A DNA stretch of 42,203 nt, taken from an uncultured Eubacteriales bacterium. GTDB taxonomy: Bacteria; Bacillota; Clostridia; Oscillospirales; CAG-272. Below, in pieces: positions 24,601 to 42,056 of the stretch (within the stretch, counting starts at the first letter, position 1; the number at the start of each line of letters is the position of its first letter). Location: contig CAKSPL010000001.1 of the NCBI GenBank assembly GCA_934481325.1, forward strand, positions 1 to 42,203, written 5' to 3'. Under the pieces are notes generated by a model. It saw only the letters and a program-made list of their open reading frames with translations. It was not told where the DNA came from and ran no database searches. The position numbers and the translations under genes were made by a program.

Positions 24601-27013
24601 CGGTATGAGTGACGGAGCCTGCAATCGTCAGATTGCGGATTACCGCGCCTGCGGCAAAGGCTGCAAATGCGGGTTTGCCGTTTACGGTGATGGTGTGGTT
24701 GTCCCCGTCAAAGGTGCCGAGGAAATATCCGGAGCGGCTTTCGCTCAGCGTGATATTTGCCGTCAGCTTGTAGTTGCCCACAAGGCTCATTGCCAGGAAT
24801 TCTTCCGCGGTGGAAATATTCGTTACCGTGTCACGAGGGGTGTTGACCAGAACGGTGCCCGACATTACGGTAAACGGATCCGCATCCGCGGCAAAGCGAT
24901 AATCGGTAGCAATCTCCACAGGCGTGCCTGTGCCGGTTTTTGCCTTGTTGTTAATCATCGGGCCCGTAAAGGTCGCTACCACATAGTTGCGTTTGTAATA
25001 GCCCGCACCCATCACGGCATCGTTGTTCCAGCCCAGTGCGTTCAGCACCGAGGAGCCGTTCGCATTTTTGCCGGTGGGGAACACCGTGGAGGTAAGCGTA
25101 CCTGCCAGCACGTTGTCGGTAAACAAGCCATAGGTGCTGTTGGTATAGCCGAATACATAGCCTGCGTTGCCGGCGGCGGTCACGTCGCCGGTGTTGATGC
25201 AGTAGGTTGCCATCAGATAAGCCTGCGAGCCGGAGCCAAACTGATAACCCACAATTCCGCCTGCGTACAGCTGTGTATGGATATTGGAAGCGGAAGCGGC
25301 ATTCGCCAGTTTGGATTCGCCGGACGTCACCTTGCCGGTGTTGATACAGCCGGTTACCCGCGTGACACCCTTGTAAGCGCCATTTCCGGAGAGGGCAATG
25401 ATACCGCCTGCGATACCGCCCTCCTGCTTGGTCACTTTGCCGTCGGTCAGGGTGTACGACGCCTTGGCGGTTACGTTACCGTCATTGCGGCAGTCGGTTA
25501 CGGTCAGGGGGCAGACGACGGTGCCTGCGATACCGCCCGCAGCGATACCGACTGTATCCGGCGAATCCGTACGGGGACCCACGTTGCCCTTATTGGTGCA
25601 ACGGATAATCGTTACGGGAGTTTGCGAATATGTCACAATCCCGGCAACGTTACCGGTATAGGAGGTTACGGCACCCTCATTGAGGCAATCCGAAATGACA
25701 ACGGAAACATCCAGTGCCAAATTTCCAATTGTGTCCGCACGGGCAACAATGCCGCCGGCGTAGTTGTATCGCGAGGTTACCGCGCCATAGTTTTCACAGC
25801 CCTGAACGGTGATTTCCGTGTTGTTGATGCACCCGGCGATACCGCCGTTCTGTCCGGTACCCTCCACATCCGCGTAGTTCTTACAGCCGGTAATGAGCGT
25901 TTTGTTCGTGGAATTGCCGACCATACCGCCCGCGCGTTTTTGATTGTATTCATTTACGGTATTGGTGTTTATCGCCTTGCCGGCATAGACCTTACCGGTG
26001 AGCTCGTTGGTGCAGTTTTCAATGGTAAGCTGCACGATGGAGTTGCCGATCATACCACCCGCATTATTATTATTCGCCGTAATGACCCCGGTATTGGTGC
26101 AACCCACCAAACGGACGGCAACGGTACCGGAGGTGTTGTTGGTATAGGCGATGATACCGCCCGCGTGATCTGCGGAGGTTACCGCGCCCTCGTTGCGGCA
26201 GTTATAGAACAGAGCCACGCCGTTGGGGCATTCCACACCGGCGGCAATGCCTGCGGCACTGCTTGCTTCCGTGGAAACCTCGCCCTTGTTGACGCAGTTG
26301 ATGAAAACGGCTTCACTGTCCTTATCGGCGGATACCAGCGAGGTAATGCCGCCGGAGGTATCGTTGCCGAAAATCTTACCTTCATTGGTGCAACGCTCAA
26401 AAATTGTGTAGCCGGCGGTGCGCCCTGCGATACCTGCGGCGCGCTTTGTAAAGCCGGCGGTACCGTCATAGTCCACCACGTTCGCCTTATTGAGAATGTT
26501 GAAGAAGTTGCAGTCAGACGAATTGCCGCACGCCACCGCACCGGTGTTGCCGGCAGAAACGGTTGCTATCCCTTCCTTCGTACTCTCAACCGTCAGGTTT
26601 TTGATGGTTGCGCCCTGCGGTGCTTCAAACAGCGGCACCGTAGTGGTTACGGTATAGCCGTTGCCGTCAAATACGCCGGCAAAGCCTGCATAGGTCGCGC
26701 TGATGGTGATGTTTGCCGTAAGATAATACTTACCATTGGGATCCATCTTGGCAAAATCCTCACCACTGCTGATTGCGGTGCCGACAGGAGTATACCCCGC
26801 ACCGGGGTTGCCTACCGGAACCGAATCATCAAGTGCCGGATTTCCGGTATTGATCTTGATTTCGCCCGCGCCGTTCGGCTGTTCTGCCGTTCCCTCGGAT
26901 GTCGTAACACCCTCTACCGATACTGCAATAGCACCGGCAGGAATGCCGGATACCACCATCAGAACCGTGAGAACGAGACACAGCCATACAGCAAGTCTGT
27001 TTTTCTTGTTCAT
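21659..27013 (-). CDS. Giant secreted GLUG-repeat / parallel beta-helix surface protein (putative adhesin)
   Basis: Start at ATG 27013 (MNKKNRLAVWLCLVLTVLMVVSGIPAGAIA, a signal peptide) after AAGGAGGAAAAT, giving 1784 aa. About 20 repeats of C-x-N-x-G...(A)GG(I/M/L)(V/A/I)G, e.g. YAGGIVGY and DVGGLVGY. Later a GTLNMFGG / GTLNIMGG / VNISGGT beta-helix region. Confidence 0.8.
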   Translation of the reverse strand: MNKKNRLAVWLCLVLTVLMVVSGIPAGAIAVSVEGVTTSEGTAEQPNGAGEIKINTGNPALDDSVPVGNPGAGYTPVGTAISSGEDFAKMDPNGKYYLTANITISATYAGFAGVFDGNGYTVTTTVPLFEAPQGATIKNLTVESTKEGIATVSAGNTGAVACGNSSDCNFFNILNKANVVDYDGTAGFTKRAAGIAGRTAGYTIFERCTNEGKIFGNDTSGGITSLVSADKDSEAVFINCVNKGEVSTEASSAAGIAAGVECPNGVALFYNCRNEGAVTSADHAGGIIAYTNNTSGTVAVRLVGCTNTGVITANNNNAGGMIGNSIVQLTIENCTNELTGKVYAGKAINTNTVNEYNQKRAGGMVGNSTNKTLITGCKNYADVEGTGQNGGIAGCINNTEITVQGCENYGAVTSRYNYAGGIVARADTIGNLALDVSVVISDCLNEGAVTSYTGNVAGIVTYSQTPVTIIRCTNKGNVGPRTDSPDTVGIAAGGIAGTVVCPLTVTDCRNDGNVTAKASYTLTDGKVTKQEGGIAGGIIALSGNGAYKGVTRVTGCINTGKVTSGESKLANAASASNIHTQLYAGGIVGYQFGSGSQAYLMATYCINTGDVTAAGNAGYVFGYTNSTYGLFTDNVLAGTLTSTVFPTGKNANGSSVLNALGWNNDAVMGAGYYKRNYVVATFTGPMINNKAKTGTGTPVEIATDYRFAADADPFTVMSGTVLVNTPRDTVTNISTAEEFLAMSLVGNYKLTANITLSESRSGYFLGTFDGDNHTITVNGKPAFAAFAAGAVIRNLTIAGSVTHTDSVGALARFGGATFINIHNTASVTTSKNYAGGIIGTTNGALARFENCTNTGAIEAATGSTAAGGLCGYSDGNYTTYINCSNSGAVSSVHQAGGIVGSSQTSASANPMYRDCVNTGKITSTGTADLASAGGIQGYNGTAAVYAQGCYNGGEIVSVRYAGGIVGDSAKGVALTACINTGSVTSTTLVAAGMANHHQDSGCKVFSFRNCINTGSVTGKTRAGGMAGELHATSGSSIVYSYCVNTGAISCGTADVGGLVGYQWASDKVGIDIQNCIIAGTVTSTGARAGALCGYANTNVATIKNNVIVATVTAKTATHLYYGTGTSPLTAKANISGNLVKSGSAMYDAQTGNGGTTVALGGNSTGTVAITDFAMDNTVTANVLLAAGINPVTNGELGYAYAKLLGVEPNEANKVAVYNAANELVATVDSLSEVSMYLTEGATVKLLANYYAATPETIVSNGVSYTFDGNGYNFYAANTGKYMLNLSGSGTANVNNLTVYAQGAGVRTGLNRRSSVLNLTFTNVKLYVGSANENGRIRSNTYAIGLYCETPSLVEIKGSESVIKNATGNLILCKNGVLNVEDGSYNSRGEAVMTQGDNAVINIYGGTFEGIDQADALIRADRGTLNMFGGRFTNNGMCVARALGGKTKNESGSDNTITTETNGTLNIMGGVLIATPGNTQVWGAVVRCGGSGTYGTVNISGGTLVNQKTGSQQVVFKNNTCASLNITGGKFLASAAQLYFVNTNGCADITTASGYHPTDSHGDVAVGTYAGTCNFEGATYKVWTFSGATDSKYAMTTKPGAQVRMTAGSTGLRFISTITADKIAAAKELAGATGSISYGTVIAPMDYVVCADAFTMEALDAASALKDVTVRYKDIKADAGLIEDENGNVEIRAALTNIQKANLTRAFAAISYVKVVDAEGAVTYYYSEFDGVNNVRSIRQVAEAALADTKTAQSDEYRYATTDAGGNTVYSRYSESAREILKGFI

Positions 27014-27094
27014 ATTTTCCTCCTTGAAATAAAATAACAGGGTTGAAATGAAAAGGTGCGCGAAAAATTTCCAAAGCACCGGTTTTCCGTTTTT

Positions 27095-27345
27095 GATTGC
27101 GCCCGCGCGATACTCCACGCGGAATACGCCGCGATGCGCTGTGCCGTGTGCGCTGTGATGCGTTTGCGTTGCGCCGCGATGCGCCGTGCATTAGTGCCGC
27201 CCGCGCGTTCTGCCGCGATGGGCTTGCATTGCGCCGCGCCGTGTGCGCCGCGCCGAAAAGTTTTCTGCGCCATTGCCTGCGCGTGATGCGCCCACGCGCG
27301 ATTCGCCGCGCATTGTACGCCACGACGTGCCGTGCGATGCGCCGT
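27095..27345. repeat. Non-coding CG-rich degenerate repeat tract upstream of the GLUG gene
   Basis: CCGCGATG recurs at 27129, 27174 and 27213, defining ~40-45-bp units (tRcgccgcgatgcgcYgtgc...). Many GCATTGC / TGCGCCGCG words. Confidence 0.55.
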
Positions 27346-27629: not shown

Positions 27630-27664
27630 CCGCGCCCTCCCAAACGGGAGGGCGCGGTTTTTTT
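27630..27664 (+). terminator. Orphan plus-strand intrinsic terminator
   Basis: CCGCGCCCTCCC-aaac-GGGAGGGCGCGG followed by TTTTTTT (27658-27664). No convincing plus-strand gene lies upstream. Confidence 0.7.
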
Positions 27665-27856: not shown

Positions 27857-27896
27857 AAAACACAAAAGCCCGGCAGGCGCCGGGCTTTTGTGTTTT
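27857..27896 (-). terminator. Terminator ending the ABC-transporter operon
   Basis: AAAACACAAAAGCCCGGC-aggc-GCCGGGCTTTTGTGTTTT. It begins 9 nt after the stop at 27905 and looks bidirectional. Confidence 0.8.
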
Positions 27897-27904
27897 GAGC
27901 ATCG

Positions 27905-28930
27905 TTATCCAACGATACCCGAGCGTTCAATACCCTGAACCAGATATCTCTGGCAGAACAGGTAAAGAATAATCAGAGGAGCGGCGATCATCAGACCGCA
28001 GGTGTACTTCATTGCCTGGAGATACGACGCACTGGAACCCGTTACCTTGGTATAAATCGCCTGCAAGGATGTAGGCGGCAGGGACTTGGTCAGTGAAGTC
28101 ATAAACTCCGGTTCCTTGGACAGGAAGAAGAGCGGGATGTAAAAATCGTCCGTCCACTGCCAGCAGAAGGCAAACAGGAACACCGTGATCATCATCGGGA
28201 TCGACAGCGGGATAATCACCTGCACAAAGGTGCGGAAGGTACCTGCACCGTCCAGATATGCGGATTCTTCCAGCTCATCCGGCACGCCGCGGAAGAACTG
28301 CCGCAACATAAAGATGTACAAGCCGTTCTTGAAGGCAAGACCCGTAATCGAAAGCAGAATCAGCGGCCAGATGGTGTCAAGCAGACTGATACTGAGCGTT
28401 TCGTTCAACCCGAAGTACCGGAAACGGTAGAACATTGCGGACTGCAAGGTACCGTGCGGAATAGCCAGCGTCAGAATCACGGCAAAGAACACCGCCTTTA
28501 CACCGCGGAATTTGAATTTGGCAAGCCCGTAACCGATCAGACAGCAGGAGAAGGTTTGCAGCAGTGCGCAGGAAAGCGAGAATGCAATCGTTTTGAAAAA
28601 CACTCTGAAATAGTGCAAATCCACGATAATCGCTTTGTAAATCCCCATCGAAAAGTGCTTCGGCACCTTCACCACCGTGGAGTCAATAAAGTCCGCCGGT
28701 GCCATAATGGAGCGCATAATCATCGTGTAGAACGGCTCCAGCACCACAAACGCAATGCCGATCAGCAGCAGGAAACGGAACAGGAACCAAATCGCGCGCT
28801 TGATGAAATAGCTGTTGAGATATTTCGCCTTCAGCCGCTCTTTCAGATCCGTGCGTTCAAAATCCACCCGGATTTTGTTTTTGGTTTCCTTTTTCACGAG
28901 GGGCTTTTGATTGTCCATATTCTGTGTCAT
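27905..28930 (-). CDS. Carbohydrate ABC transporter permease (MalG/LplC-type), pair 2
   Basis: 341 aa, multi-TM. EAA loop PDELEESAYLDGAGTFRTFVQVIIPLSIP. Confidence 0.85.
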   Translation of the reverse strand: MTQNMDNQKPLVKKETKNKIRVDFERTDLKERLKAKYLNSYFIKRAIWFLFRFLLLIGIAFVVLEPFYTMIMRSIMAPADFIDSTVVKVPKHFSMGIYKAIIVDLHYFRVFFKTIAFSLSCALLQTFSCCLIGYGLAKFKFRGVKAVFFAVILTLAIPHGTLQSAMFYRFRYFGLNETLSISLLDTIWPLILLSITGLAFKNGLYIFMLRQFFRGVPDELEESAYLDGAGTFRTFVQVIIPLSIPMMITVFLFAFCWQWTDDFYIPLFFLSKEPEFMTSLTKSLPPTSLQAIYTKVTGSSASYLQAMKYTCGLMIAAPLIILYLFCQRYLVQGIERSGIVG

Positions 28931-28945
28931 TCTTCAATCCCCCTC

Positions 28946-29938
28946 TCAGTCTCTTCTCTGGTAGAAGACGAACGTGGAGAAGATCAGAGCCACAAGTCCC
29001 ACTACCAAAAGCACTACCAGGAAATACATCCAACCCATTGCGGCACTGACGTGCTTGGCACCGTCAATTGCGCCGCCGTAGGTTTCGTTGATGACGTTCA
29101 TTACCGAGTTGGAGTCCGTGGTAAAGTTATCGATAATCGTATACACGCCGTTTACCAGAATCATCGGGCTGACCATCGGGAAGGTAATCTTCCAGAAGGT
29201 TTCCCACGAGGTTGCGCCGTCAATCTGGCAGGATTCGTAAATGGCGGGGGAAATGGATTGCAGGGAAGCCAGGAAAATCAGAATCTGCACACCCGAACGG
29301 TTGACGATATCCGAAATTCCCGCCACGGCGGAGGCAATGTATTTCACCAGTCCCTCCCCGAAGCCAAGGCTTTCAAACACGCTTTCCAACAGCCCTTCAA
29401 TCGCAAGCGAGGAGGCAATCTTATCGGTTGCGCTCGCCTGGGAGCCAACGTCCATACTGGTACCGGATGCCGCATAGGATGCGTGCATAATCGACTCCAT
29501 CAAGCCCGTGGAAATAACCACAGGCAGGAAGAAGATGGCACGGAACGCGGCGCGCCCCACCATTTTCTGATTCAGAATCACTGCGATAAACAGGGAGAAA
29601 ATCAGAATGGCGGGAATGTCAAACGCCATTTCCTTCAAGCCCGTCAGCAGGGTCTGCATAAAGTCCGCTTTTTCAAACAGCGCACTGCGGTAATGCTCCC
29701 AGCCCGCAAACACCTTAGTCATTCCGCCACCGCCGCTTATCGGGGTGTAGGTGAAGAAGCTGTATTTGATGGACTGGTAAATAATCGGGATGTAAATCAG
29801 CACAAACCCGACCACGAAGGGGAGTACGAACAGCCAGCCGGCGCGCGCCTTGCGGCGGTCAAGGGAGGCGATTTTCTTTTTCTTTTGAGGGGCTTTTACC
29901 GGTGTTGCCGGCTTGCCCGCTTTTACCTGTTGATTCAT
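28946..29938 (-). CDS. Sugar ABC transporter permease (MalF/LplB-type), pair 2
   Basis: 330 aa, multi-TM. EAA loop ISPAIYESCQIDGATSWETFWKITFPMVSP. Lys-rich N-terminus. Confidence 0.85.
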   Translation of the reverse strand: MNQQVKAGKPATPVKAPQKKKKIASLDRRKARAGWLFVLPFVVGFVLIYIPIIYQSIKYSFFTYTPISGGGGMTKVFAGWEHYRSALFEKADFMQTLLTGLKEMAFDIPAILIFSLFIAVILNQKMVGRAAFRAIFFLPVVISTGLMESIMHASYAASGTSMDVGSQASATDKIASSLAIEGLLESVFESLGFGEGLVKYIASAVAGISDIVNRSGVQILIFLASLQSISPAIYESCQIDGATSWETFWKITFPMVSPMILVNGVYTIIDNFTTDSNSVMNVINETYGGAIDGAKHVSAAMGWMYFLVVLLVVGLVALIFSTFVFYQRRD

Positions 29939-29956
29939 TTCGGCTCCTCCCTTCCT

Positions 29957-32900
29957 TTAATGGTAAATCACCACATAGCCGTAGGCGGCAATCGTGTAAA
30001 CCACACCGTCCACGGTGGTCTGCACCGCGTAGTCGTTGAAGTTCAGGATCAGCGATTTGTACGGCGCGTTCTTCTCGCCGTAGGTCACTTTCACCAGTGC
30101 GTTGTCAATGGAATACTTGGATTTCGGAGGATCGGGGATGACCACGTCCTCGTCGTCCTCGCCGGGCTGGCCGTCACCGGGCTCCGGCTCCGGCTCAGGA
30201 TCCTGAGGTCTGGTCAGCGCGCTCAGACGCTCTGCGTAAACAGCCGCGTAATCGATGAGCGAATGCTCACCGTCCGCCTCGTTATACAGCCCGTCACGAA
30301 TCATCATATCGATGAAAGCGCGTTCCAGATTCCCTGCGCTGATGGCGGCATATTTTGCCTCCACCGCTTCGTCATTGCCGAAGAGGAATGCTTCCAAATC
30401 CTCGGCGGCAACCGGCTCGGAGGTGCTTTCCAGCACCAATTGTGCGAGCAGTGCCGTCACCGTGGTATCGGTACCGTTGACATAGGCTTCCTTGGTTTCT
30501 TCGGTAAAGCTGCCGGTCGTTCCGTAATAGCTGCCGTAAAGTGTGGCAAAGCCGTCCAGTGCAAGCAGGAGGTTGGCGCGTGCCTCACTCACAACCTGTT
30601 CATCGGCGTTGCACGCCACAAGCGTGTCGTAGCCCACCTTTGCCGCCGTCAGGCTTTCGCCCGCATTGCGCAGCATCACGGCAATCTGCACCATCGGAGC
30701 CGCCACGGAGGAGCTGATCTGTTTTCTCAGATCGTCCACGGCAACCTCCAGATTCTTCGTCGGGTCGTCATCCGCCTTGGCAGCCTCCTCGCGGTAGCTT
30801 TCCCAGGCGCGGAGCAACCATTTGGTGGTAGAGCTTTCCTTGGCGGCACGCGTATTCTGAAGGTTGGTAATCTGTGCCTTCAAGCGGTCGTTCAGGGAAA
30901 CCATCGTGGTGGCACCCGCCGCAGCCGCATCGGAGGAGGTACGGATCAGCTTGATTGCCGCCAGGCGTTCCGCCTCAATTTTTTCCTCCAGCTCCTTCTG
31001 CTTTTCCGCCATCTTATCCGCAATATCGGAGAGCAATTCCTTCTGCTCCGGCACACGGCTTCCTTCCAGGAATTGATGGTCAATAATCAGCTTGGTCTGC
31101 ACGTCGCCGAGAACGGCGTTCAGCTCCTTGTAAATCTCCACCAGTTTGCTCTGCCAGATGTCATAACGCACCGAGTAGTTCTGAGACAGCAGCTCATCCT
31201 CTTTGAGGATTTCGGTGTTGGCATAGGAGAGGATAAAGTAGATGGAAGCACCGTTTTCCATTGCTTTGAGCATTGCGTAGCTCAGGTTGCCCTCCATATT
31301 GAGTGCGTCACCCGCAAACTGCACGTAGCCGTGCAACACAACCCCAAGGAAGGGAACCGAAAGGTATTCCGCATTGTACCGGCTGGAATCCAGCGGCACC
31401 TTCAGAATATGGTCGGCATAGCTCCAGGTAAAGGCGTTGCCGCCGTCCAGCATTACGTCGTAATCCTTGTTTTTGAAGAACGACAATGCCTGCACCACAT
31501 ATTCCTTGGTTTCCTCCCGCAGGGTCGTTTTGGACTCGTCATAGTCCGCATTCAGCTCACTGCCGAGGGTGGAAAGCGAAATACTGCCAACCTCGTATTT
31601 GCCGTATTTCTTAGCAAGCTTTTCATAGAATTTGCTGTAAGTAGAGGGTGCCAGCACCATCTGATAATAGCTGACCAACCCCTGCTGGGTTGCGGAATAC
31701 AAACGCTTGGTGGTGTATCGGTTGTCAATGGTGCGTGCACCGTTCTTTTTCATCTTAACCGCACTGCCGCCGTCACCCTGTGTGGTATACACAAAGTCAA
31801 AATCGGGGAAGATGCCGAAGCCCTTTTCCTCGGCGTATTTCACGAGATCCTTGAACCCGGATTTTCCGCCTACGGAGCTTTCCCATTTCAGCTTGTACGG
31901 CACATCCGAATAAATGCCGCCGTTGGCATAGCCCTTCATCTTGAAGTTGACGTTTTTGATGCCCTCACCCGCCAGGTAATCGTACATCGTGGCAATATCC
32001 TCAAACGAGGTCAGTGCCACAGAAACCGTTACCGGCATTGAGAGAACCTTTTTCACGGTATCCACACAGCCGAAGGTCTCGATGTAAAGCGGGAGCGAGG
32101 TTCCGGTTCTGGCTTCCGCCAGCCGACGGTAAGACTCGTTGCTCGCCTCCATATAATCGCGGTAAGCGCACGCCATCCCCATCCAGCTGCACTCGTAGTA
32201 CTCGGAAAGCGACGCTTCCTGTGCCTTGGTATCATCGGACAGAATCATATAGCGGAGCTTATAGTCGCCCACGTAGCGGCGGCTGGCATAAACCTTCCAT
32301 TTGGATTTGGAGGTATCGCTCTGTCTCGTGGTAAACGAGGCGGAAACAGCCGCGTAGTCCATATAGGAGGTGTGGTTCGGTGCGATGGTGGCAAGGGATT
32401 CACCCTCCTCAATAATCGCCACGAAGCCGCGCTTGGAGGTTTTGCCCTCGGTTTCGCTGTACACGGCGTCACTGATCTTGTTGCCGTTCTCATCGTACTG
32501 GCTGGGTGTGATCAGGTCGGGCGTGAACACGGTTTCCACCTGACCGAACACCGGCGCGCGCATTGCGGCGTTGCGGTATCCGGAAATGTCGGAAAACAGG
32601 GAATAATCCTCACCGTACACACGGAATGCCGTCACGCTCAGAGAGGACAGATTATACAGCGTTCCCGAGCCGTCCGGAACGAAGGAATACCCCTCGTTGG
32701 TTTTCAGAGAAGCACCCATAAAAGGGAGAATCTGAAAATCGGTAATCCGGTACGCGGTTTCGTCGTAACGAAGCCCGTTTGCGGGGAGAGACACCTGCAA
32801 GCCGTTGCCGGAAATGGTGTATTCCAGTGCCATTTTGAATACGGGCGGAGAGGTTGCCTCCTCCTCGTACTCCACAAAGGAGTGGTCATTGTCCATTTCC

Positions 32901-33682
32901 TCAAACGAATAGTCGGTGCAGTAAGCCAGAATTTTGGCTTCCAGCTTTCTCATTTCGTTGCTGGAGGTGTTGGGGTTCAGCACATAGATGTCAATGTTCT
33001 TCTTTTCACAAATCGGGAAGGAGAGCGCAATTGCCTTTTGCTTGTTCACTGCGGCAGTGGTATATGCCTGCAGGGAAAAGTAAACCTTGAACTGCGTCAG
33101 CTCACGCTCGGTCATCTGCTTCTTTTTCACCGCCGCCTGCAAGGGCTTGAGGATTTTTTCCTCAAACGCGGATTTTTCAATCCGCACGGGGCAAAGGATT
33201 CTGGAAGAACGCTGTCCGATCGCGTATTCCACACGCAGACCGTTTTTGATGTTTTTCACCGTAATCTGCCCGGAGATTGCCGCATCGGTATAGCTGTTCA
33301 GGCTCAGCGACTGGTTTTCGCTGTCCACGTATTCCAGCATAATCTGCGACATCAGCTCGGAGCGCACCACGCTGTCCTTGTTTTTCTCCGCGCCCATATT
33401 CCAGGGGTTGGTGAACAGGGTTTCGCCCGTGGAGAGCTTCTGATACGCCACCACGCCAAGCAGGGTGTCGCAATACAGCGCGTACTCTCCGTTGTCATAG
33501 AATTTCTTCATAGAGGCAAGGCGATCCGCCTCCGTGTCATACAGAACGCTGGTATAATCCAGCGTGGGGTCCAGCACCGGCGTATCCTCCGCCGCGCTGA
33601 CCGGAAGTGCCGGAACAATGCACACCATCATCAGCACAGCCAGGGACGCGCAAAGTAACCGCAACAACAGTTTCTTTTTCAT
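29957..33682 (-). CDS. 1241-aa secreted protein of unknown function (resembles DUF5696-type proteins from memory; possible glycan-processing enzyme)
   Basis: Signal peptide MKKKLLLRLLCASLAVLMMVCIVPALPVSA-AED. Central region with FGIFPDFDFVYT and LSVPFLGVVLHGYVQFAG, then a long Ala/Glu-rich helical segment, a PEPEPEP linker and a small C-terminal beta domain. I could not name a catalytic motif. Confidence 0.45.
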   Translation of the reverse strand: MKKKLLLRLLCASLAVLMMVCIVPALPVSAAEDTPVLDPTLDYTSVLYDTEADRLASMKKFYDNGEYALYCDTLLGVVAYQKLSTGETLFTNPWNMGAEKNKDSVVRSELMSQIMLEYVDSENQSLSLNSYTDAAISGQITVKNIKNGLRVEYAIGQRSSRILCPVRIEKSAFEEKILKPLQAAVKKKQMTERELTQFKVYFSLQAYTTAAVNKQKAIALSFPICEKKNIDIYVLNPNTSSNEMRKLEAKILAYCTDYSFEEMDNDHSFVEYEEEATSPPVFKMALEYTISGNGLQVSLPANGLRYDETAYRITDFQILPFMGASLKTNEGYSFVPDGSGTLYNLSSLSVTAFRVYGEDYSLFSDISGYRNAAMRAPVFGQVETVFTPDLITPSQYDENGNKISDAVYSETEGKTSKRGFVAIIEEGESLATIAPNHTSYMDYAAVSASFTTRQSDTSKSKWKVYASRRYVGDYKLRYMILSDDTKAQEASLSEYYECSWMGMACAYRDYMEASNESYRRLAEARTGTSLPLYIETFGCVDTVKKVLSMPVTVSVALTSFEDIATMYDYLAGEGIKNVNFKMKGYANGGIYSDVPYKLKWESSVGGKSGFKDLVKYAEEKGFGIFPDFDFVYTTQGDGGSAVKMKKNGARTIDNRYTTKRLYSATQQGLVSYYQMVLAPSTYSKFYEKLAKKYGKYEVGSISLSTLGSELNADYDESKTTLREETKEYVVQALSFFKNKDYDVMLDGGNAFTWSYADHILKVPLDSSRYNAEYLSVPFLGVVLHGYVQFAGDALNMEGNLSYAMLKAMENGASIYFILSYANTEILKEDELLSQNYSVRYDIWQSKLVEIYKELNAVLGDVQTKLIIDHQFLEGSRVPEQKELLSDIADKMAEKQKELEEKIEAERLAAIKLIRTSSDAAAAGATTMVSLNDRLKAQITNLQNTRAAKESSTTKWLLRAWESYREEAAKADDDPTKNLEVAVDDLRKQISSSVAAPMVQIAVMLRNAGESLTAAKVGYDTLVACNADEQVVSEARANLLLALDGFATLYGSYYGTTGSFTEETKEAYVNGTDTTVTALLAQLVLESTSEPVAAEDLEAFLFGNDEAVEAKYAAISAGNLERAFIDMMIRDGLYNEADGEHSLIDYAAVYAERLSALTRPQDPEPEPEPGDGQPGEDDEDVVIPDPPKSKYSIDNALVKVTYGEKNAPYKSLILNFNDYAVQTTVDGVVYTIAAYGYVVIYH

Positions 33683-33703
33683 TTTGTTTTCTCCTTTCTG
33701 TGC

Positions 33704-35875
33704 TTAGAGTCGGTAGTTGATTTCGCTCACGATACCGGTCACAAAGCTGATCATATCCACAATCAGCGAGGTAAAGAGAATCGCAAGGAACATAATAAAC
33801 GCCATACCCACCAGCGTACCGGCAGTGGTGAGAATGTTTTTGAGCATCGAATAATCGTGCGTCACCATCATTCCGAAGAAGATGAGGAACCCGGTCCAGA
33901 TGAACCCGATCGTCACAATCAGCGAAAGGATGTTGGTCTCGGAGGTTACCACAAAGTTGGAAATGATGGTAGTGGGAACTATGGTAATCGCAATCGGCAA
34001 CAGCGAGTAGCTGATGGCGATGAAGATATCCCGGAAGCTGCCCTCGCCGTCAAACAGCGTGGTCAGACACCAGTTGGCAATCGCAAACAGGAGAACCGGA
34101 ATTGCCACCACCAAAATCTGCATAAAGATGGTGGAATAGGTCCCCTGCGGGTTCATAATGTAACCCAGACCCACGCTCCGGTAGAACAGTGCCACCACCG
34201 TAATCGCGATAAAGACAAAGGAAGCTCGGAGCGACCCTCGTTTTTCGTGTTTGAGATCCCAATAGCCGTCAAACGGGTGGAACATCAGGTGGAACACAAA
34301 CAACAGCTCCTGTCGGAAGGTGCGCTTGCCCTTGGTTACCGCAACCTGCTTGTTGATCTTTGCGGCGTGACGCAGGAATTTGCCGATCAGCACGCAAATG
34401 ACCACCACAATGACCGGAATCAGCAGGAAGAACTTGGACATCCATTCCTTGCGCAATTCCTGATATGCAATGGAGTAGTTGTCGGTATCGTAGGCGGACT
34501 CGTAATATTTGAGAGCCTCCTTGAACTCGCCGCTCCGGTAGAGCGACTGCCCGATGCCGATGTACGCCGCGTCATAGTTGGAGTTACGCATCAGAATCTC
34601 TTTCCAGTCCTCAATCGCAAGGTCATACTGGCGGGCGTTCTGATGGTGCAGTGCCTGAATCAGCACGTCTCCGTATTCCGTACGGCTATATACCGTCAGA
34701 CTCTGCTTTTTGCCGTTGCCGTCCAGCACCAGCAGTCGGTCACCCTGATAGACGATGGATTTGATTGCCGACAGGTTGCCGAGCTGTGCGCCGGCGTCAC
34801 CGAACGCAAACAGCAGGTTGCCGTCATAATCGTAGGTATAAATCTTACTGCGGTTGGAGTCCACGATGGACCAGGTGGATTCGGGGCCGCAGGCAACGTC
34901 GGTCACCTTGGAGATGCCGCCCTTCGTTTTATCCTGCTTGTTGACGTAGTCGATCTCGCCGGCAGGCGGCCAGAAGCCGTTACGGCGCATAATCTCGTCA
35001 CCCGCAGGGTTGAGCAGCTTACAGGGTGCATAGTCACCGGATTTGTCTTTCGTTTTGATGGCGGAGGTCATCTTAGCAACCAGTTGTTCCTCGTAAATCG
35101 TTGCATAGATGAAACCGCGCTCGTTAATGGCTACGTTATTATAAGGATAGGAAATAACCGAAACGGTATTTTCTCTCTGCTCCTTGGTCTGAAAACGACG
35201 CCAAATCTGTTGCCACACCGAGGTTACGGACTGCTGAGCCCCGATAAAGCCGGTAAACTCGCCCGTATCCGTCATCACGATGATACCCTCGTTGGTCTGA
35301 GAGGACACCACAAACAGCCGGTCATAGCTATCCACGGCAATCGCCACGGGCCAGTACACGGCATCGTCGTCAAACAGCTCGGATTCCGGTGCCGGGATAA
35401 TCGAGGAAAATTCACCGTCCAGGGTAAAAGTAACAATCCGGCTGGCTTCGGTATCGCACACGAAGATACGCCCGGGATACTTCAGCTTGCCCTCCTCATA
35501 CCGGTCGGCAGTGACGCACATCCCGCGGGGCTTGGAGAAATGATCCGGCACACCCTGATCGTTGAGGAACCCTTCGATTTCAAACCGCACGCGGTAGTAA
35601 GGGTCCAGGCACACGATCCGGTTGCGGTCGGTATCCACGATGTATACGTTTTCGTCCGCATCCACCACCACGTCGCTCGCATTGGAAAGCGTGGTGGTCA
35701 GACCCATTGCCGCAGAGTCAATGTTCTTGACCGCGGTATAGGCATCCGGAGAGTAAAGCGGGGTGCCGTCAATGGCATAGGTGTAGGTCTGATACGCGCG
35801 CGACGCGCCGACCGGAACCGATGCCACCATCAAAAGGGCAAACAGCACCGAAACAAATGCCAAAAATTTTTTCAT
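33704..35875 (-). CDS. NHL-repeat beta-propeller / TPR-like / YIP1-family membrane-domain fusion protein
   Basis: Start at ATG 35875 (MKKFLAFVSVLFALLMVASVPVGA), giving 723 aa. NHL-like blades (VVVDADENVYIVDTDRNRIVCLD; GRIFVCDTEASRIVTF; DRLFVVSSQTNEGIIVM; WSIVDSNRSKIYTYD). TPR-like NYDAAYIGIGQSLYRSGEFKEALKYYESAY. Then 5-6 TM helices with a Yip1-like pattern. Confidence 0.65.
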   Translation of the reverse strand: MKKFLAFVSVLFALLMVASVPVGASRAYQTYTYAIDGTPLYSPDAYTAVKNIDSAAMGLTTTLSNASDVVVDADENVYIVDTDRNRIVCLDPYYRVRFEIEGFLNDQGVPDHFSKPRGMCVTADRYEEGKLKYPGRIFVCDTEASRIVTFTLDGEFSSIIPAPESELFDDDAVYWPVAIAVDSYDRLFVVSSQTNEGIIVMTDTGEFTGFIGAQQSVTSVWQQIWRRFQTKEQRENTVSVISYPYNNVAINERGFIYATIYEEQLVAKMTSAIKTKDKSGDYAPCKLLNPAGDEIMRRNGFWPPAGEIDYVNKQDKTKGGISKVTDVACGPESTWSIVDSNRSKIYTYDYDGNLLFAFGDAGAQLGNLSAIKSIVYQGDRLLVLDGNGKKQSLTVYSRTEYGDVLIQALHHQNARQYDLAIEDWKEILMRNSNYDAAYIGIGQSLYRSGEFKEALKYYESAYDTDNYSIAYQELRKEWMSKFFLLIPVIVVVICVLIGKFLRHAAKINKQVAVTKGKRTFRQELLFVFHLMFHPFDGYWDLKHEKRGSLRASFVFIAITVVALFYRSVGLGYIMNPQGTYSTIFMQILVVAIPVLLFAIANWCLTTLFDGEGSFRDIFIAISYSLLPIAITIVPTTIISNFVVTSETNILSLIVTIGFIWTGFLIFFGMMVTHDYSMLKNILTTAGTLVGMAFIMFLAILFTSLIVDMISFVTGIVSEINYRL

Positions 35876-35892
35876 CGCTATTCCCCTTTCTC

Positions 35893-36768
35893 TTAGTCTT
35901 TCATACCGGAGGAACCCATCGTTTCGATGATGTTCGACTGAGAAATCACGAACACCAGGATCGGCACCAACATCATAATGACCAGCGACGCCGCGTGCGC
36001 GCCCGCACGCTTGATACCGCCTGCCATAATCTGACCGATCGCGTAGTTGAAGGATTTCAGCTGCTCCGAATGGATGTAAATGGAGGACCCCTTGTTCCAG
36101 AGATCCTGGAAGGAGTAGATAATCAGTGTCAGCCACGCGGGCTTAACCATCGGCATCGCAATCACCCAGAAGGTGCGGAATTCGCTGGCACCGTCCAGTC
36201 TTGCGGATTCCAGCACCGCATCGGAAACGTTGGTTTCCATAAACTGCTTCATCAGGTAAAGCCCGAGGGAGGTTGCCCACGCCGGCACGATGATTGCCCA
36301 ATAGGTGTCAATCCAGTGGAAGGCACTCATAATAATGAAAGAAGTAACCGCCGTAACCGTGGAGTGGAACATCAGGGAGGTTCGCACGGTTTTGAACATC
36401 ACCTTGCCGCCCGGAAACTTGATCTTCGCCATCGCGTAAGCCGCAAGGGAGGAGAACAGGAGGTTTCCGAAGGTGCCGACCACAGAGGTAAACACCGTGT
36501 TGAAAATGTAACGGGAGAACGGCACCCACGAGGTGTTCATCAGGGTGAACAGGTCGCGATAGTTTTTGAAGGTGGGGTTGCGCACGTAAAAGCGGGGCGG
36601 GAACATCCACAATTCATCCAGCGGTTTGAGTGACTGCAATACCACATAAAGCATCGGCAGGAACATAAACACGCCGAGAATCGCCAGGATAAAGGTAATA
36701 CCGGCATCGCCCCCGGCGGATCGGTTCAGTACGACTTTGTGTTTTCTGGTACGAAGTTTTTTCGACAT
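35893..36768 (-). CDS. Carbohydrate ABC transporter permease (MalG/LplC-type), pair 1
   Basis: 291 aa. EAA loop SDAVLESARLDGASEFRTFWVIAMPMVKP. Confidence 0.88.
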   Translation of the reverse strand: MSKKLRTRKHKVVLNRSAGGDAGITFILAILGVFMFLPMLYVVLQSLKPLDELWMFPPRFYVRNPTFKNYRDLFTLMNTSWVPFSRYIFNTVFTSVVGTFGNLLFSSLAAYAMAKIKFPGGKVMFKTVRTSLMFHSTVTAVTSFIIMSAFHWIDTYWAIIVPAWATSLGLYLMKQFMETNVSDAVLESARLDGASEFRTFWVIAMPMVKPAWLTLIIYSFQDLWNKGSSIYIHSEQLKSFNYAIGQIMAGGIKRAGAHAASLVIMMLVPILVFVISQSNIIETMGSSGMKD

Positions 36769-36769
36769 A

Positions 36770-37705
36770 TCACTGACCCACCTTTGAAAGCATTTTCTTG
36801 ACCAGCATATTTGCGCCGATCATAATGGCAAACAGCACCACGGCAATGGTGGAGGAATAACCCACCTCAAAACGCTGACTGCCGTAGTCCTCCAAGTGGT
36901 GCATAATGGTGTGCGCCGCGTAGTCCACGGACGGGAAGCCGCACAGTGCCGTTACCACGCCGCCGAAGCCGAACGAGGAGGTAATTGCCATAATCGCGCC
37001 GAACATCAGCTGCGGCTTCATCGAGGGCAGAGTAATGTACCAAAGCTCCTTCCAGCGGTTGCGCAAGACGTCCACGGCTCCTGCCTCGTACATCGAGCGG
37101 TCAATGCCCTGCAAGCCCGCGATGAAGGACAGGAACGAGGTACCGAGTGAGGTCCAGAGTGCCACCACGATACACAGCGGCATCACGTAGTCCGCATCCT
37201 CGAAGAACTGAATTTCCTTGGAAATCAGCCCGAGGTTGAGCAACGTACCGTTGACCCAGCCGTAAGCGTCACCCGAGAAAAGCGTACCCCAAATCAGGTA
37301 AACCTGACCCGAAATGGAAGGTGCATAGAAAACCAGCGTGACCACCGCACGGATTTTCGGCGGCAGCTCGTTGATGAACCACGCAACCATCAGGGACATC
37401 AGGTACGAGCAGGGGCCCACGATGATTGCAAAAATCAGGGTGTTTTTGCAGGCGATGATGAAAATATCATCGTCCAGGAACAGGCGGATGTAGTTATCCA
37501 GAAATACAAAATTCGGCATTTCCAGAAGGTTGAAATCCGTAAAGCTGATAACCATAGACAACAGCACCGGCACCACGGTAAAGCAAGTGAAGATCAGCAT
37601 ATAAGGTGCCACCATCAGGTAAGCGACCTTATTGCGCTTCATTTCCTTCCAGGTCCATTGCGCTCTTGTCATATCTGAGCGGATGACCGCTTTTTTCTTT
37701 GACAT
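36770..37705 (-). CDS. Sugar ABC transporter permease (MalF/LplB-type), pair 1
   Basis: 311 aa. EAA-like loop DRSMYEAGAVDVLRNRWKELWYITLPSMKP. The stop is 1 nt before the next start. Confidence 0.85.
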   Translation of the reverse strand: MSKKKAVIRSDMTRAQWTWKEMKRNKVAYLMVAPYMLIFTCFTVVPVLLSMVISFTDFNLLEMPNFVFLDNYIRLFLDDDIFIIACKNTLIFAIIVGPCSYLMSLMVAWFINELPPKIRAVVTLVFYAPSISGQVYLIWGTLFSGDAYGWVNGTLLNLGLISKEIQFFEDADYVMPLCIVVALWTSLGTSFLSFIAGLQGIDRSMYEAGAVDVLRNRWKELWYITLPSMKPQLMFGAIMAITSSFGFGGVVTALCGFPSVDYAAHTIMHHLEDYGSQRFEVGYSSTIAVVLFAIMIGANMLVKKMLSKVGQ

Positions 37706-37741
37706 TTGCTCAAATCTCCTTTATCGTAGCGTTCTGTCCGC

Positions 37742-40700
37742 TCAGCGGTTCAGCACATGCACGGCGTTGTTCAGCGCGGCAATGGTGTTGGCAAACGCGT
37801 TGGCATCCACCTCGGCAAATCCTTGCGCCGCCAATTGCAGGGTGACGTAGTCGGTGGCTTTGATGCCCTCCCTCATCAAAGAGATGGCGTGTTCCGCCGC
37901 CGCCAGCTTTGCAGGATCCATTTTTTCGGTGTCAGCCTTGAATGCCGATTCAACCTGACTCATCCGCTTCTGCGTCAGCGTCTGCCCCAGTTCCAACGTT
38001 TCCAGACCAAACTCCTGTCGCTTCCGGGTAATCTCCTTGTTGATGGTGGTGATGTAGCTTTGCAGCTCGGTAATCGGGTCCGCATTGTCATCATACGCCG
38101 CAAGGAACGCAAACTTGGTGTAACGCCCGATGATGTAACTGCCGGGATAGTTCGGGATGGATGCAAGGTTGTTGAACTGATAGGAAAGCTGCTCGTATTC
38201 CGCCGAGGTCCACGGCATCTCGGAGAGTGCCTGAATGTTGGCGGTCGCGTGCTTCGCGGAGGGACCGATAATCGCCACCATCTCGTTGGAATATTTGATC
38301 TGGCAATCGGCACCCGCGTGCCACTTCATAAACTTCCACGCGTCCGCTTCGTTTTTGCAGCCGTTCAGCATCACGATCGCGGATGCCGTGGAAACCGATA
38401 CGTTGTTGATGTAGGTGTTGCCGTCCGCGTCCGTCTGCTCGATGCCCGGCATCGGCACAAACCCCCACAAGCCCTTGATTTCGGTAGCAAACACGGTCAG
38501 GTGGTTGTAGGTACCGTTGTAGGAGGCAAAGCCGATCGGCATCTCGCCGGTGCGGAACCGGTTGGCAAAGTCATATTTATAAGGGAAGGAATACATCGTG
38601 AAGAAGTTGCACATCGTTTCAAAGGATTCCAACCCCACGTTGGAGTCCAGGTTAATCCGCATCCCGTCATCGGCAAACAGCTCGCCGCCGTTCTGATACA
38701 GGAAAATTTTGTAGTCGGTGTGCATACCGATCTGCATATTGTTTGCCTGCAGAATCGGGATTGCCGCCAGAATGTCATCCCAGGTTTTCGGAATCTCGAT
38801 ACCGAGATCCGCCAGAATGTCATCCCGGATAAACATCATCGTAAAGTTCTGGGTTTCGGGCAGACCGTAGTAGTGGAATGCGCCCTCGGCGTCCTCAATT
38901 CCCATGACGAACATTGCGGCTTCGTTGAACTGCGGGTTTTCGTTCAGCACGTCCTTGCCGAGCGCGTCCTTTGCGCGCACCTTGGTAATTTCCGGCACGC
39001 CGTCCCCGTTGCTGTCACGCTTTTCATATTTATAATAAAGCATATCCTCGAAGCCGTCCATATTCTCAATCGGAACAAGGGCACCGCGGATGGCGTAGTT
39101 GATAACGTTGTCCTCGCCCACGCCGATATAAACGTCGGGGCCCATCCCTGCCAGCACGGAGGGGAGGAGTGTGCCGCCGGCAACCAGCTTCAGGTTGACC
39201 GCCACATTGTACTCGGGGGTAAAGTCGTTGTTGATCAGGTTCCGGATTACCTGCGCCTGGTCACGGCCGTAAGCCAACCACACCTCGATGGTGTCATTGC
39301 TCCCGGTGTCCTCCGTCATCGCGCCCATCCGGTTGTAGTTGCGGAAGAAGGACATAAAGAAGCTGGAAACCTCGTGCGCAATCGACTGGAAGAAGCCCGC
39401 TTTGGCACGGGGCAGCTCGTTGTCCAGAGGCTGAATCACCAGGTAATCCAACTGCAGGGGCTGCGTCTTCGCATCGCCGAGCCAGGTGCCGAGCGTACCG
39501 ATATAGGATTTCAGCTGGTCCAGATACTTGGCGATTTCCTCGCCGCCGTCCTGGCACATTCTCTCCAGCAGCCACGCCACCTTTTCCAGCGTTGCCACGT
39601 GAGAGGATTTTTCACCGGTAATCGCCGTCAGCTCTGCGGCAATCGCATACAGCTCACGGGACTGAATCACCATATCCATCAGGGTATCGGGAAGGGCGCG
39701 GGAGAAACCGTAGTCACGGTACTGATCGGGGTCCGCACCGGTCAGCTTCATAATCGCCAGGTAATCGGCGTTGATGGCGGACAGCGCGGTATCCACGCGG
39801 CGCACCACACTGCCCATAGAGCCGAGCGTTACTTCCATTTCAATGGTGTACTCCACCCCGGCTTCAAAATAGAATTTGTACGCATCGCCGCCGTTGTTCA
39901 GAAACGCGGACTGCCATCTGTTATTGTAGTTGAAACGGAGCTGAGACGCTTCGTAGAACGGGATTCCGCCGTCATAATAGCCAAGCGAACCCGCCTCCGC
40001 TCCGTTGCTTGTAATATAAAGGGAGCGGCAGATGTACATACCGTCCAGCACGTTCTGACGGTAGCGGGTGGCAATGTTGTACATCCCGGAGGAGTTCACC
40101 TTAAATTTATAGCGCACCCACTGACCTGCGGTCTGCCATTTTTCCCCGCCGATCGTGTTCAGCACGGTTCTGCCGGTATCCGAAGGCATCGTTGCGGCAT
40201 CGGTGCGATCCTCAATCGGATACACCGTCTGTGAGGAGGTCGCACTCGTGTATTCCGCCTGAATCCGCACCCAGTCACTGCCGGAACCGACGTTGGCATA
40301 ACGGGCAAGATAAGATTCGTATGTAATCAGATCCTCGTGCGGTACCAGCGTGATCGAGCGAATGGTCATCGGCTCGTTCACCGCCTCCAGCGAGATGGTC
40401 CGCTCGCCTTCTTCCAGCACAAATTCAAAAGTCTCGGCGTAAAAGCCGTCCGCGTCACGCAATTCGTATTTCCGCCATTCGGGGCTTTGCGCCATCGTGG
40501 GGCGCAATTCGTTGCTGTCAATATCCGCGGTCATAAAGCGAACCGTGTGATTGTTGACATAGTCGGCAACCTGCTGTGTCCACACGTCGGGACATTCAAT
40601 TGCCACGTAGCTCTCCCCGTTTTCGTTGACCAGCTTGACCGTCTCCGAATCAAAGCCCGCGGCAATCGCCTCGTCGTAGAGTGCCTGAACGGAAATCTTT

Positions 40701-41236
40701 CCGTCGGGATCGGTCACCTTTGCGGTCACATACTGGTTTTTCCAGATTTTCGGCAGAGTCAGATAGCGCGCTTCCTTGAACGGGATCGCACCATCGATTT
40801 TCAGAATACGCTCGATGGAAGCGGATTTCGCCTCGTCGGGCCAGTACTCAATTACAATGCTGTATTTCGCCGTGCCCGGCACGTTCAGCGTCCAGGTCAC
40901 GGTGCCGGCATTCGGCGTGTACAGTGCCTCGGTGCCGTCCGCCGCAGTCACCACCTTCGCTTCCTCGGTGCCGGTTGCGGTTTTCAGAAATTCTGTGTAG
41001 TGAAGCACATCCACCGGCAAAGGCCCGGTCGCGCGCGCTATCGCGGCATACTTCGTGCAGTATGCCTCATAGGTCATCGCGTTGAGCTGTTCCTTGATCT
41101 CGGCAAGTGTTTTGTTCGTCACGGAGCCGTTCATACCGGAGCCGCTTTCCGCGCCGATGGTCAGCGCACTGCCGCCGACCAGTAAGATCAACGCCAGAAC
41201 GAAAGCCAGCCCTCTGTATAGCCTCGTTTTCTTCAT
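37742..41236 (-). CDS. Giant (1164-aa) extracellular solute-binding protein with long N-terminal carbohydrate-binding-like extension
   Basis: Start at ATG 41236 (MKKTRLYRGLAFVLALILLVGGSALTIGA) after TAAGGAGGGGAAAT. The N-terminal ~600 aa contain beta-sandwich-like segments (TVTWTLNVPGTAKYSIVIEYWPDE; GQWVRYKFKVNSSGMYNIATRYRQ). The C-terminal half is family-1 SBP-like (IEVWLAYGRDQAQVIRNLINNDFTPEYNVAVNLKLV...). Confidence 0.7.
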   Translation of the reverse strand: MKKTRLYRGLAFVLALILLVGGSALTIGAESGSGMNGSVTNKTLAEIKEQLNAMTYEAYCTKYAAIARATGPLPVDVLHYTEFLKTATGTEEAKVVTAADGTEALYTPNAGTVTWTLNVPGTAKYSIVIEYWPDEAKSASIERILKIDGAIPFKEARYLTLPKIWKNQYVTAKVTDPDGKISVQALYDEAIAAGFDSETVKLVNENGESYVAIECPDVWTQQVADYVNNHTVRFMTADIDSNELRPTMAQSPEWRKYELRDADGFYAETFEFVLEEGERTISLEAVNEPMTIRSITLVPHEDLITYESYLARYANVGSGSDWVRIQAEYTSATSSQTVYPIEDRTDAATMPSDTGRTVLNTIGGEKWQTAGQWVRYKFKVNSSGMYNIATRYRQNVLDGMYICRSLYITSNGAEAGSLGYYDGGIPFYEASQLRFNYNNRWQSAFLNNGGDAYKFYFEAGVEYTIEMEVTLGSMGSVVRRVDTALSAINADYLAIMKLTGADPDQYRDYGFSRALPDTLMDMVIQSRELYAIAAELTAITGEKSSHVATLEKVAWLLERMCQDGGEEIAKYLDQLKSYIGTLGTWLGDAKTQPLQLDYLVIQPLDNELPRAKAGFFQSIAHEVSSFFMSFFRNYNRMGAMTEDTGSNDTIEVWLAYGRDQAQVIRNLINNDFTPEYNVAVNLKLVAGGTLLPSVLAGMGPDVYIGVGEDNVINYAIRGALVPIENMDGFEDMLYYKYEKRDSNGDGVPEITKVRAKDALGKDVLNENPQFNEAAMFVMGIEDAEGAFHYYGLPETQNFTMMFIRDDILADLGIEIPKTWDDILAAIPILQANNMQIGMHTDYKIFLYQNGGELFADDGMRINLDSNVGLESFETMCNFFTMYSFPYKYDFANRFRTGEMPIGFASYNGTYNHLTVFATEIKGLWGFVPMPGIEQTDADGNTYINNVSVSTASAIVMLNGCKNEADAWKFMKWHAGADCQIKYSNEMVAIIGPSAKHATANIQALSEMPWTSAEYEQLSYQFNNLASIPNYPGSYIIGRYTKFAFLAAYDDNADPITELQSYITTINKEITRKRQEFGLETLELGQTLTQKRMSQVESAFKADTEKMDPAKLAAAEHAISLMREGIKATDYVTLQLAAQGFAEVDANAFANTIAALNNAVHVLNR

Positions 41237-41360: not shown

Positions 41361-41390
41361 ATTTTACCACTTTTTCATCACAAAAGTCAA
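41361..41390 (-). promoter_or_regulatory. SigA-type promoter for the ABC locus
   Basis: Minus strand reads TTGACT (41390-41385), 18 nt, TGG-TAAAAT (-10 at 41366-41361). This gives a ~120-nt GC-rich leader with hairpins, e.g. GGCGGCG-tttgac-CGCCGCC. Confidence 0.55.
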
Positions 41391-41860: not shown

Positions 41861-42056
41861 GTTACCCTCCCTTGCCTTTCGCCCGCCGTTTCCTCTCTTG
41901 CCTTTCGCCCGCTGTTTCCTCTCTTGCCGTTCGCCCGCTGTTTCCTCTCTTACCGTTCGCCCGCTGTTTCCTCTCTTGCCGTTCGCCCGCCGTCGCCCCC
42001 TTACCTTTCGCTCGGCGATTACCTCCCTTGTCTTTCACCCGGCAGGTTACCGCAAG
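41861..42056. repeat. 26-bp head-to-tail tandem repeat array (~7.5 copies)
   Basis: Units start at 41888, 41914, 41940 and 41966 (gtttcctctcttgccKttcgcccgcY) and are near-identical. The outer copies at 41861, 41992 and 42018 are progressively degenerate. There are no spacers. Confidence 0.85.

Follow-up and report, generated by a model that had tools for sequence, protein, structure and literature searches.

Here we describe a predicted seven-gene operon in a stretch of 42,203 nucleotides (nt) from an uncultured Eubacteriales bacterium of the lineage Clostridia, Oscillospirales, CAG-272 (assembly GCA_934481325.1, contig CAKSPL010000001.1, positions 1 to 42,203), hereafter the window. The operon encodes a giant solute-binding protein (SBP), a pair of permeases of the carbohydrate uptake transporter 1 (CUT1) type (P1_F and P1_G), a membrane protein that combines NHL, TPR and Yip1 domains, a secreted protein of the DUF5696 family, and a second permease pair (P2_F and P2_G). 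We consider it reasonably probable that these genes are one copy of a conserved Gram-positive cell-surface cassette for oligosaccharide uptake, composed of two modules and served by a shared ATPase, in which the component resembling glycoside hydrolase (GH) family 129 is probably non-cleaving. Module A comprises the SBP, P1_F and P1_G, and module B comprises the NHL/Yip1 protein, DUF5696, P2_F and P2_G. The parts are of known kinds, namely a CUT1 transporter, a GH129 fold and a Yip1 domain; their fixed combination was not found described, full-text literature searches having returned no published description of the cassette.

The idea that these genes belong together is supported by their order in other genomes. 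The same seven-gene order recurs in 29 of 33 long loci, which extend from close relatives to Paenibacillus, Caldicellulosiruptor, Mahella and Mageeibacillus. All seven genes stand in identical order in four sister species (DUF5696 identity 50-55%), and when 20-kb regions were fetched around 20 distant DUF5696 matches in Clostridia, all 20 held the giant SBP, P1_F, P1_G, the NHL/TPR/Yip1 protein, DUF5696, P2_F and P2_G. The succession Yip1-DUF5696-P2_F-P2_G was present in 20/20 shorter loci, and among nine loci taken from other classes of the phylum, five keep the cassette order. The two accessory genes, whose frequent absence from otherwise identical loci was named in the original prediction as one result that would speak against it, were missing from none of the loci examined (33 long and 20 short), and are thus integral to the cassette.

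The components are also widely distributed. Of 300 Clostridia genomes sampled, 88 have DUF5696 matches above the Pfam cut-off, often in two to four copies each, and in a wider sample of the phylum 21 of 301 genomes have a match at E <= 1e-20; at E <= 1e-3, a large representative library holds about 4,045 clusters of the family at 50% identity. The N-terminal, non-SBP part of the binding protein was found in 70 of 301 genomes of the class, and, on inspection, about 75 of these N-terminal matches were each followed, 6.5-10 kb downstream on the same strand of the same contig, by a match to DUF5696. Named carriers are Mageeibacillus indolicus, Mahella australiensis (four copies), Caldicellulosiruptor obsidiansis, C. 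hydrothermalis, Paenibacillus odorifer, P. pabuli and P. taichungensis. The P1 pair is the most conserved part of the cassette, with 90-93% identity in sister species (P1_F 87-91%, P1_G 91-94%) and about 50% in distant loci; the corresponding values are about 70% and about 35% for the P2 pair, 70% and 32% for the SBP, 72% and 28% for the NHL/Yip1 protein, and 52% and 26% for DUF5696. This is the gradient that diversification of the outermost, substrate-facing parts around a fixed core channel would be expected to leave. In Caldicellulosiruptor obsidiansis, an IS110-family transposase gene (L055:4687-6012) interrupts the P1_G gene of the cassette; module A of this copy is probably inactive, and module B looks intact.

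The genes that adjoin other copies of the cassette lend support to a role in glycan capture and import, as had been proposed. They include GH10, GH9/GH5, GH3 and GH106 genes and genes for a pectate lyase, an apiosidase-like protein, YesM/YesN-type two-component systems and LacI. The adjoining carbohydrate-active enzymes (CAZymes) vary by locus (xylanase, cellulase, GH3, rhamnosidase, pectate lyase, apiosidase-like), which argues for a generic accessory role and against a single linkage-specific enzyme or pathway.

In the window, the seven open reading frames occupy the minus strand from position 41236 to position 27905, exactly where they had been placed before. The gaps between them measure, in order, 36, 1, 17, 21, 18 and 15 nt, the start codon of P1_G lying 1 nt past the stop codon of P1_F, and a Shine-Dalgarno sequence precedes the ATG of all seven genes. 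A putative sigma-70-type promoter (41361-41390, minus strand) precedes the SBP start codon by about 125 nt; the top-scoring site of the region, it is identified by consensus match only and agrees with 10 of 12 consensus positions (TTGACT, an 18-nt spacer and a TG-extended TAAAAT). At the other end, an intrinsic terminator (27857-27896, minus strand) lies 9 nt after the last stop codon and consists of an 18-bp stem followed by a U run, with an RNAfold free energy of -31.2 kcal/mol. Internal promoter-like sites number 17, against 10.3 +/- 3.3 in shuffled sequence, and internal terminator-like sites 16, against 18.8 +/- 4.2; all lie within coding sequence, and neither kind is clearly above the shuffled expectation. 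None of the Rfam families searched across the region gave a match. With one upstream promoter-like site, a strong downstream terminator and such short gaps, the genes read as a single operon, and the layout, with two permease pairs and two accessory proteins, is that of a non-canonical CUT1 locus; both points agree with the original prediction.

The first gene (37742-41236, minus strand) encodes the SBP, a protein of 1164 amino acids (aa) in which Pfam recognises only SBP_bac_1 (aa 664-975, E 7e-16), the extracellular cluster-B/D solute-binding domain of CUT1 importers. In an AlphaFold2 model with a mean confidence (pLDDT) of 80, an N-terminal signal or anchor helix is followed by two beta-sandwich modules (about aa 70-300 and aa 320-470), a four-helix bundle (aa 472-590), the CUT1 oligosaccharide-binding fold (aa 596-1075) and a clade-specific C-terminal helical extension (aa 1087-1163). 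The N-terminal helix (aa 9-27) is the single hydrophobic helix of that end, and no lipobox Cys accompanies it. The C-terminal half of a profile built from 22 orthologues matched oligosaccharide SBPs in the PDB (Lin1841, 5ysb, E 1e-31), and profile positions 274-402 matched the carbohydrate-binding module CBM35 of a cycloisomaltooligosaccharide glucanotransferase (CITase; 5x7g, E 1e-8). Foldseek aligned the model to sophoro-, cycloisomalto- and cello-oligosaccharide binding proteins with TM-scores of 0.7-0.8.

All four permeases match Pfam BPD_transp_1 and MalF/MalG/UgpA/UgpE-type NCBIfam models, and all are encoded on the minus strand. P1_F (36770-37705, 311 aa) is of the MalF/UgpA type, with matches to UgpA/PotB/GlcT models, and P1_G (35893-36768, 291 aa) is of the MalG/UgpE type; P2_F (28946-29938, 330 aa) is a divergent MalF/UgpA-type protein, and P2_G (27905-28930, 341 aa; BPD_transp_1 E 4e-15) is of the MalG type, with matches to MalG/GlcU/UgpE models. 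The locus thus has the permeases expected of a CUT1 importer, with two pairs instead of one. P2_F is distant from P1_F, cross-matches having E values of about 1e-5 to 1e-15 and orthologues about 1e-100. EAA-type loops are readable in all four translations, suggesting that both channels should dock an ATP-binding cassette (ABC) ATPase. No gene for such an ATPase occurs among the genes of the operon, which had been regarded as normal for these bacteria; in agreement with this, each of four complete carrier genomes encodes exactly one UgpC/MsmX-type ATPase (at the NCBIfam cut-off), hundreds of kilobases from its cassettes. A TOBE_2 match on contig C149, the only TOBE-domain ATPase detected in the window's own genome, was considered as an MsmX-type ATPase and rejected as PotA-like. 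This genome assembly is 74% complete, and within it OB_MalK (PF17912) had no match. Besides the four of the cassette, no CUT1 permeases were found in this assembled part of the genome of about 2 Mb.

Between the two permease pairs stand the accessory genes. The first (33704-35875, minus strand) encodes a 723-aa membrane protein with Pfam matches to NHL, TPR_1/2/16 and Yip1, arranged as a signal or anchor segment, an extracellular NHL beta-propeller, TPR repeats, one transmembrane helix and a five-helix transmembrane Yip1 domain, with the transmembrane helices read from the hydropathy profile. Yip1 (PF04893) is matched at aa 529-698 with E 3e-15 and 56.8 bits, compared with a Pfam cut-off of 28.6. 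In some loci a single gene encodes the NHL/TPR and Yip1 parts, and in many they are split between adjacent or overlapping genes; this occurrence both as fusions and as neighbours suggests that they act together.

The second accessory gene (29957-33682, minus strand) encodes a secreted protein of 1241 aa that matches DUF5696 (PF18952) with E 6e-127 and 425 bits, compared with a gathering threshold of 25.6. Both accessory proteins had been described as having no assigned role; for this one, as for the extra N-terminal part of the SBP, a partial assignment is now possible. The profile search proposed for the 1241-aa protein, together with a structure comparison, uncovered relatives among GH129 and GH101; a PDB search with the single sequence gave no match, and family profiles were needed. 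The family profile matches the 3,6-anhydro-D-galactosidase ZgGH129/DagB (8rzk/5opq, E 2e-14; PMC5698469) and the alpha-N-acetylgalactosaminidase NagBb (5wzn, E 1e-6), and Foldseek, given an AlphaFold2 model of aa 31-900 (pLDDT 75.7), ranked 5opq best (E 2.5e-22), followed by 5wzn and then by GH101, GH36 and GH31 structures. The architecture is an N-terminal beta-sandwich, a (beta/alpha)8 barrel and a final small beta domain, which matches the N-terminal beta-sandwich, TIM barrel and small C-terminal beta domain of ZgGH129 (PMC5698469). By profile and by modelled fold, then, the 1241-aa protein is a remote homologue of GH129/GH101 glycosidases. The window clade carries extra segments at about aa 155-259 and about aa 385-416, and ahead of the terminal small beta domain come about 300 aa of helical insert (about aa 875-1170) and a PE-rich linker; related DUF5696 proteins reach 2,545 aa. 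In the window clade, helical extensions have been added to both surface proteins: about 300 aa to DUF5696 and about 75 aa to the C-terminal end of the SBP.

Given this homology, we asked where the catalytic residues of GH129 fall in the family. A barrel-only DUF5696 profile aligned to just the first third of the NagBb barrel, and a family of short standalone proteins was therefore used as a bridge. These DUF5696-like proteins (L062-L066) are 563-608 aa long, lack a signal peptide and lie outside any cassette, and their profile aligns with NagBb over the whole barrel (E 6e-25). The catalytic residues of NagBb are D435, which corresponds to D486 of ZgGH129, and E478 (PMC5698469). In the standalone proteins an invariant Asp in the motif HYID falls on D435 and an invariant Glu in the motif ASEGG on E478 (5/5 each, and both acidic in 5/5). 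They probably represent true GH129-type enzymes of the cytoplasm. In the window protein, the nucleophile column of D435 is occupied by T705 and the acid/base column of E478 by D746; by alignment, not superposition, the protein thus lacks the nucleophilic Asp of GH129. Among 75 sequences of the window clade, the nucleophile column holds Thr in 64 and Ser in 9 and is never acidic, and the acid/base column is acidic in 67. Of 48 non-redundant cassette-type proteins, 15 have Asp in the nucleophile column (25 have an acidic residue either there or at the preceding position), 17 have an acidic residue in the acid/base column, and only 9 have acids at both canonical positions. An assignment of D713 as the canonical nucleophile, made from conservation alone, was dropped, as the alignment sets NagBb D435 at T705; D713 could be an alternative carboxylate.

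From gene content, order and conservation, from folds and homology, from the residue substitutions and from the orphan ATPases of complete relatives, we infer a model of physical association, substrate, direction of hand-off and non-catalytic role in which module A would be a CUT1-type importer whose SBP, tethered or secreted, bears at least one CBM35-like beta-sandwich. The SBP may hold a polymer or large oligosaccharide at the surface and pass fragments to P1_F/P1_G. Module B would supply a second, anciently diverged CUT1 pair, P2_F/P2_G, always accompanied by the NHL/TPR/Yip1 protein and DUF5696, which may together serve the P2 channel as a receptor or scaffold outside the cell. Since the GH129 nucleophile has been lost in the window clade, the GH129-like protein of this clade most likely binds or presents glycan and would not perform canonical retaining cleavage. 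A shared MsmX/UgpC-type ATPase, encoded elsewhere, would power both channels.

Several observations weigh against this model. No CAZyme or regulator adjoins this copy among the neighbouring genes inspected, and the copy thus lacks the active degradative CAZyme and regulator in the same locus by which a Gram-positive polysaccharide utilisation locus is recognised. The window's own genome, at 74% completeness, yielded no MsmX-type ATPase. The catalytic residues were mapped through profile alignments at about 20% identity and by way of a bridging family. E809 is nearly invariant in the cassette-type proteins (46/48), and D713, close to the canonical site, is Asp in 35/48, including the window protein, which makes a displaced or non-canonical active site possible. 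Finally, modules A and B are sometimes apart, and so may not form a single machine: of the proposal that the locus encodes one machine, the fixed order in 29 of 33 loci stands, and the unity of the two modules is weakened by the 4 of 33 in which they are swapped or apart.

These four loci speak for an alternative that we regard as possible but doubtful, namely that the operon encodes two independent, co-transcribed CUT1 importers, with module B using an SBP encoded elsewhere and the giant SBP not serving P2. Module B stands ahead of module A in two of the nine loci from other classes (L058, L059), and in two more (L057, L061) module B is accompanied by an SBP of normal size, and module A does not occur within 20 kb. 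Likewise, a normal-sized second SBP stands beside module B, and occasionally beside module A, in about 17 of 37 cassettes elsewhere, and the absence of any other CUT1 pair from the assembled part of the genome is also consistent with an external SBP serving P2. In the window clade no second SBP is adjacent to the cassette; a candidate in the window's own genome is an orphan lipoprotein of about 520 aa (C75:2372-3934, minus strand), which has a weak match to the second-SBP profile (E 9e-20) and is conserved in 10 of 12 congeners, never on the cassette contig. This lipoprotein may be unrelated, since it has no match in Pfam or the PDB and its family is expanded to 30 copies in one related genome (G609). 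Against independence of the two importers stand an A-then-B order and tight spacing that persist in 29 of 33 loci over very large evolutionary distances, and the almost one-to-one co-occurrence of the giant SBP with long DUF5696 proteins. It is possible that one binding protein serves both translocators, yet the original claim that it does so is not secure, given the second SBPs of other cassettes and the C75 lipoprotein. By inspection, the loss of catalytic residues in DUF5696 and the presence of a second SBP showed no clean pattern of association. In an uncultured Bacillota locus (L060:10525-17400), about five tandem gene copies that match the second-SBP profile follow the cassette.

A second alternative, which we judge unlikely, concerns the enzymology: DUF5696 could be an active surface glycosidase with a displaced or non-canonical centre that trims glycans, and the locus would then be the capture, cleavage and import system that was first envisaged. 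Such activity would accord with the GH129/GH101-like fold, with the conservation of E809 and D713, and with the largely acidic acid/base column of the window clade. Moreover, the acid/base residue of ZgGH129 differs from that of NagBb and extra carboxylates are recruited (PMC5698469), indicating that the fold tolerates rearranged catalytic machinery. An active glycosidase is harder to square with a nucleophile column that is Thr or Ser in 73 of 75 window-clade sequences and Asp in under a third of the wider set, with the rarity of acids at both canonical positions when all five standalone relatives have them, and with a variation among adjoining CAZymes too wide for one linkage specificity. 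Judging from the alignments, the DUF5696 protein here is either non-catalytic or uses a non-canonical centre, and because the GH129 nucleophile is missing, processing by the 1241-aa protein is doubtful.

A bolder extension of the uptake model, which we think rather improbable, would make the dead GH129-derived protein and the Yip1-anchored propeller obligate extracellular receptor or gating subunits of P2_F/P2_G, as a counterpart to Sus-like systems, so that P2 in the seven-gene version would be an importer without a classical SBP of its own. If true, this would represent a new mode of substrate feeding for a type I ABC importer and the first import function for bacterial Yip1 proteins.

The surroundings of this copy consist of a GLUG-repeat surface protein of 1784 aa on the downstream side and a repeat-rich contig end on the upstream side. 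The GLUG-repeat gene (21659-27118, minus strand) lies directly downstream of the cassette with promoter-like sites of its own (27751-27712), and the same genome has paralogous fragments of the protein on contigs C27, C28 and C194. The stretch that separates this giant gene from the cassette terminator carries, on the plus strand, a strong terminator-like hairpin (27630-27657; 12 bp, 11 of them GC, followed by T7), upstream of which no plus-strand gene is obvious. Further upstream than the operon promoter, near the contig end, an approximately 26-bp unit is repeated in head-to-tail copies (GGCGGGCGAA[AC]GGCAAGAGAGGAAACA-like) at 41861-42056. That the system serves mainly surface sensing, retention or the recycling of envelope glycans, its permeases importing signalling oligosaccharides or cell-wall fragments, would suit a copy with a giant surface protein and no CAZyme or regulator beside it, a catalytically impaired-looking DUF5696 and permeases that are the only CUT1 permeases detected in a small genome, but is very improbable given that the cassette elsewhere sits among plant-polysaccharide CAZymes and sugar-responsive regulators and that the SBP domain resembles those of oligosaccharide importers.

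Viewed as an oligosaccharide uptake cassette, the locus resembles CUT1 importers (TC 3.A.1.1) of the MalEFGK2 and MsmEFGK types in its SBP_bac_1 domain and in its MalF/MalG-type pairs with EAA loops, and it resembles the Firmicutes CUT1 importers that share an MsmX/MsmK-type ATPase in that the operon lacks an ATPase and complete carriers have a single orphan one of UgpC/MsmX type. Unlike these importers, the cassette has two anciently diverged permease pairs in one operon, an SBP that measures about 1000-1160 aa and includes a helical bundle and two beta-sandwich modules, and two obligatory proteins between the permease pairs. Sus-like systems use a TonB-dependent transporter, SusC, together with SusD. 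The cassette shares with Sus-like and Gram-positive polysaccharide utilisation loci the combination of surface glycan-binding and GH-fold proteins, a dedicated transporter and variable CAZymes and regulators nearby; it differs from Sus-like loci in that its transporter is an ABC importer, SusD is absent and the GH-fold component appears catalytically degenerate, and this copy differs from polysaccharide utilisation loci in having neither a CAZyme nor a regulator next to it. DUF5696 shares the architecture of NagBb and ZgGH129, but the window protein has Thr in the D435 column, and across the cassette family as a whole neither catalytic position is conserved; again unlike GH129, the window protein is secreted, is encoded in a transporter operon and carries the long helical insert of its clade. 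YknWXYZ of Bacillus offers another bacterial case of a Yip1 protein, YknW, whose gene accompanies those of an ABC transporter and which is presumed to work together with that transporter (PMC4887032). However, YknYZ is a MacB-type exporter and YknW has neither an extracellular propeller nor TPR repeats, such that the likeness is that of a shared Pfam domain.

Altogether, the cassette is common and often present in multiple copies, and its carriers include cultivable fibre degraders (Paenibacillus, Caldicellulosiruptor and Mahella) as well as gut and vaginal Clostridia. It links three uncharacterised protein types to ABC sugar import, namely a bacterial Yip1 protein, a surface NHL propeller and DUF5696, the last of which is a clear case of a glycosidase fold that has seemingly been repurposed. 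If its function were known, carbohydrate uptake would be annotated better in many Firmicutes that inhabit the gut or degrade biomass, and a new principle of accessory subunits in type I ABC importers could emerge.

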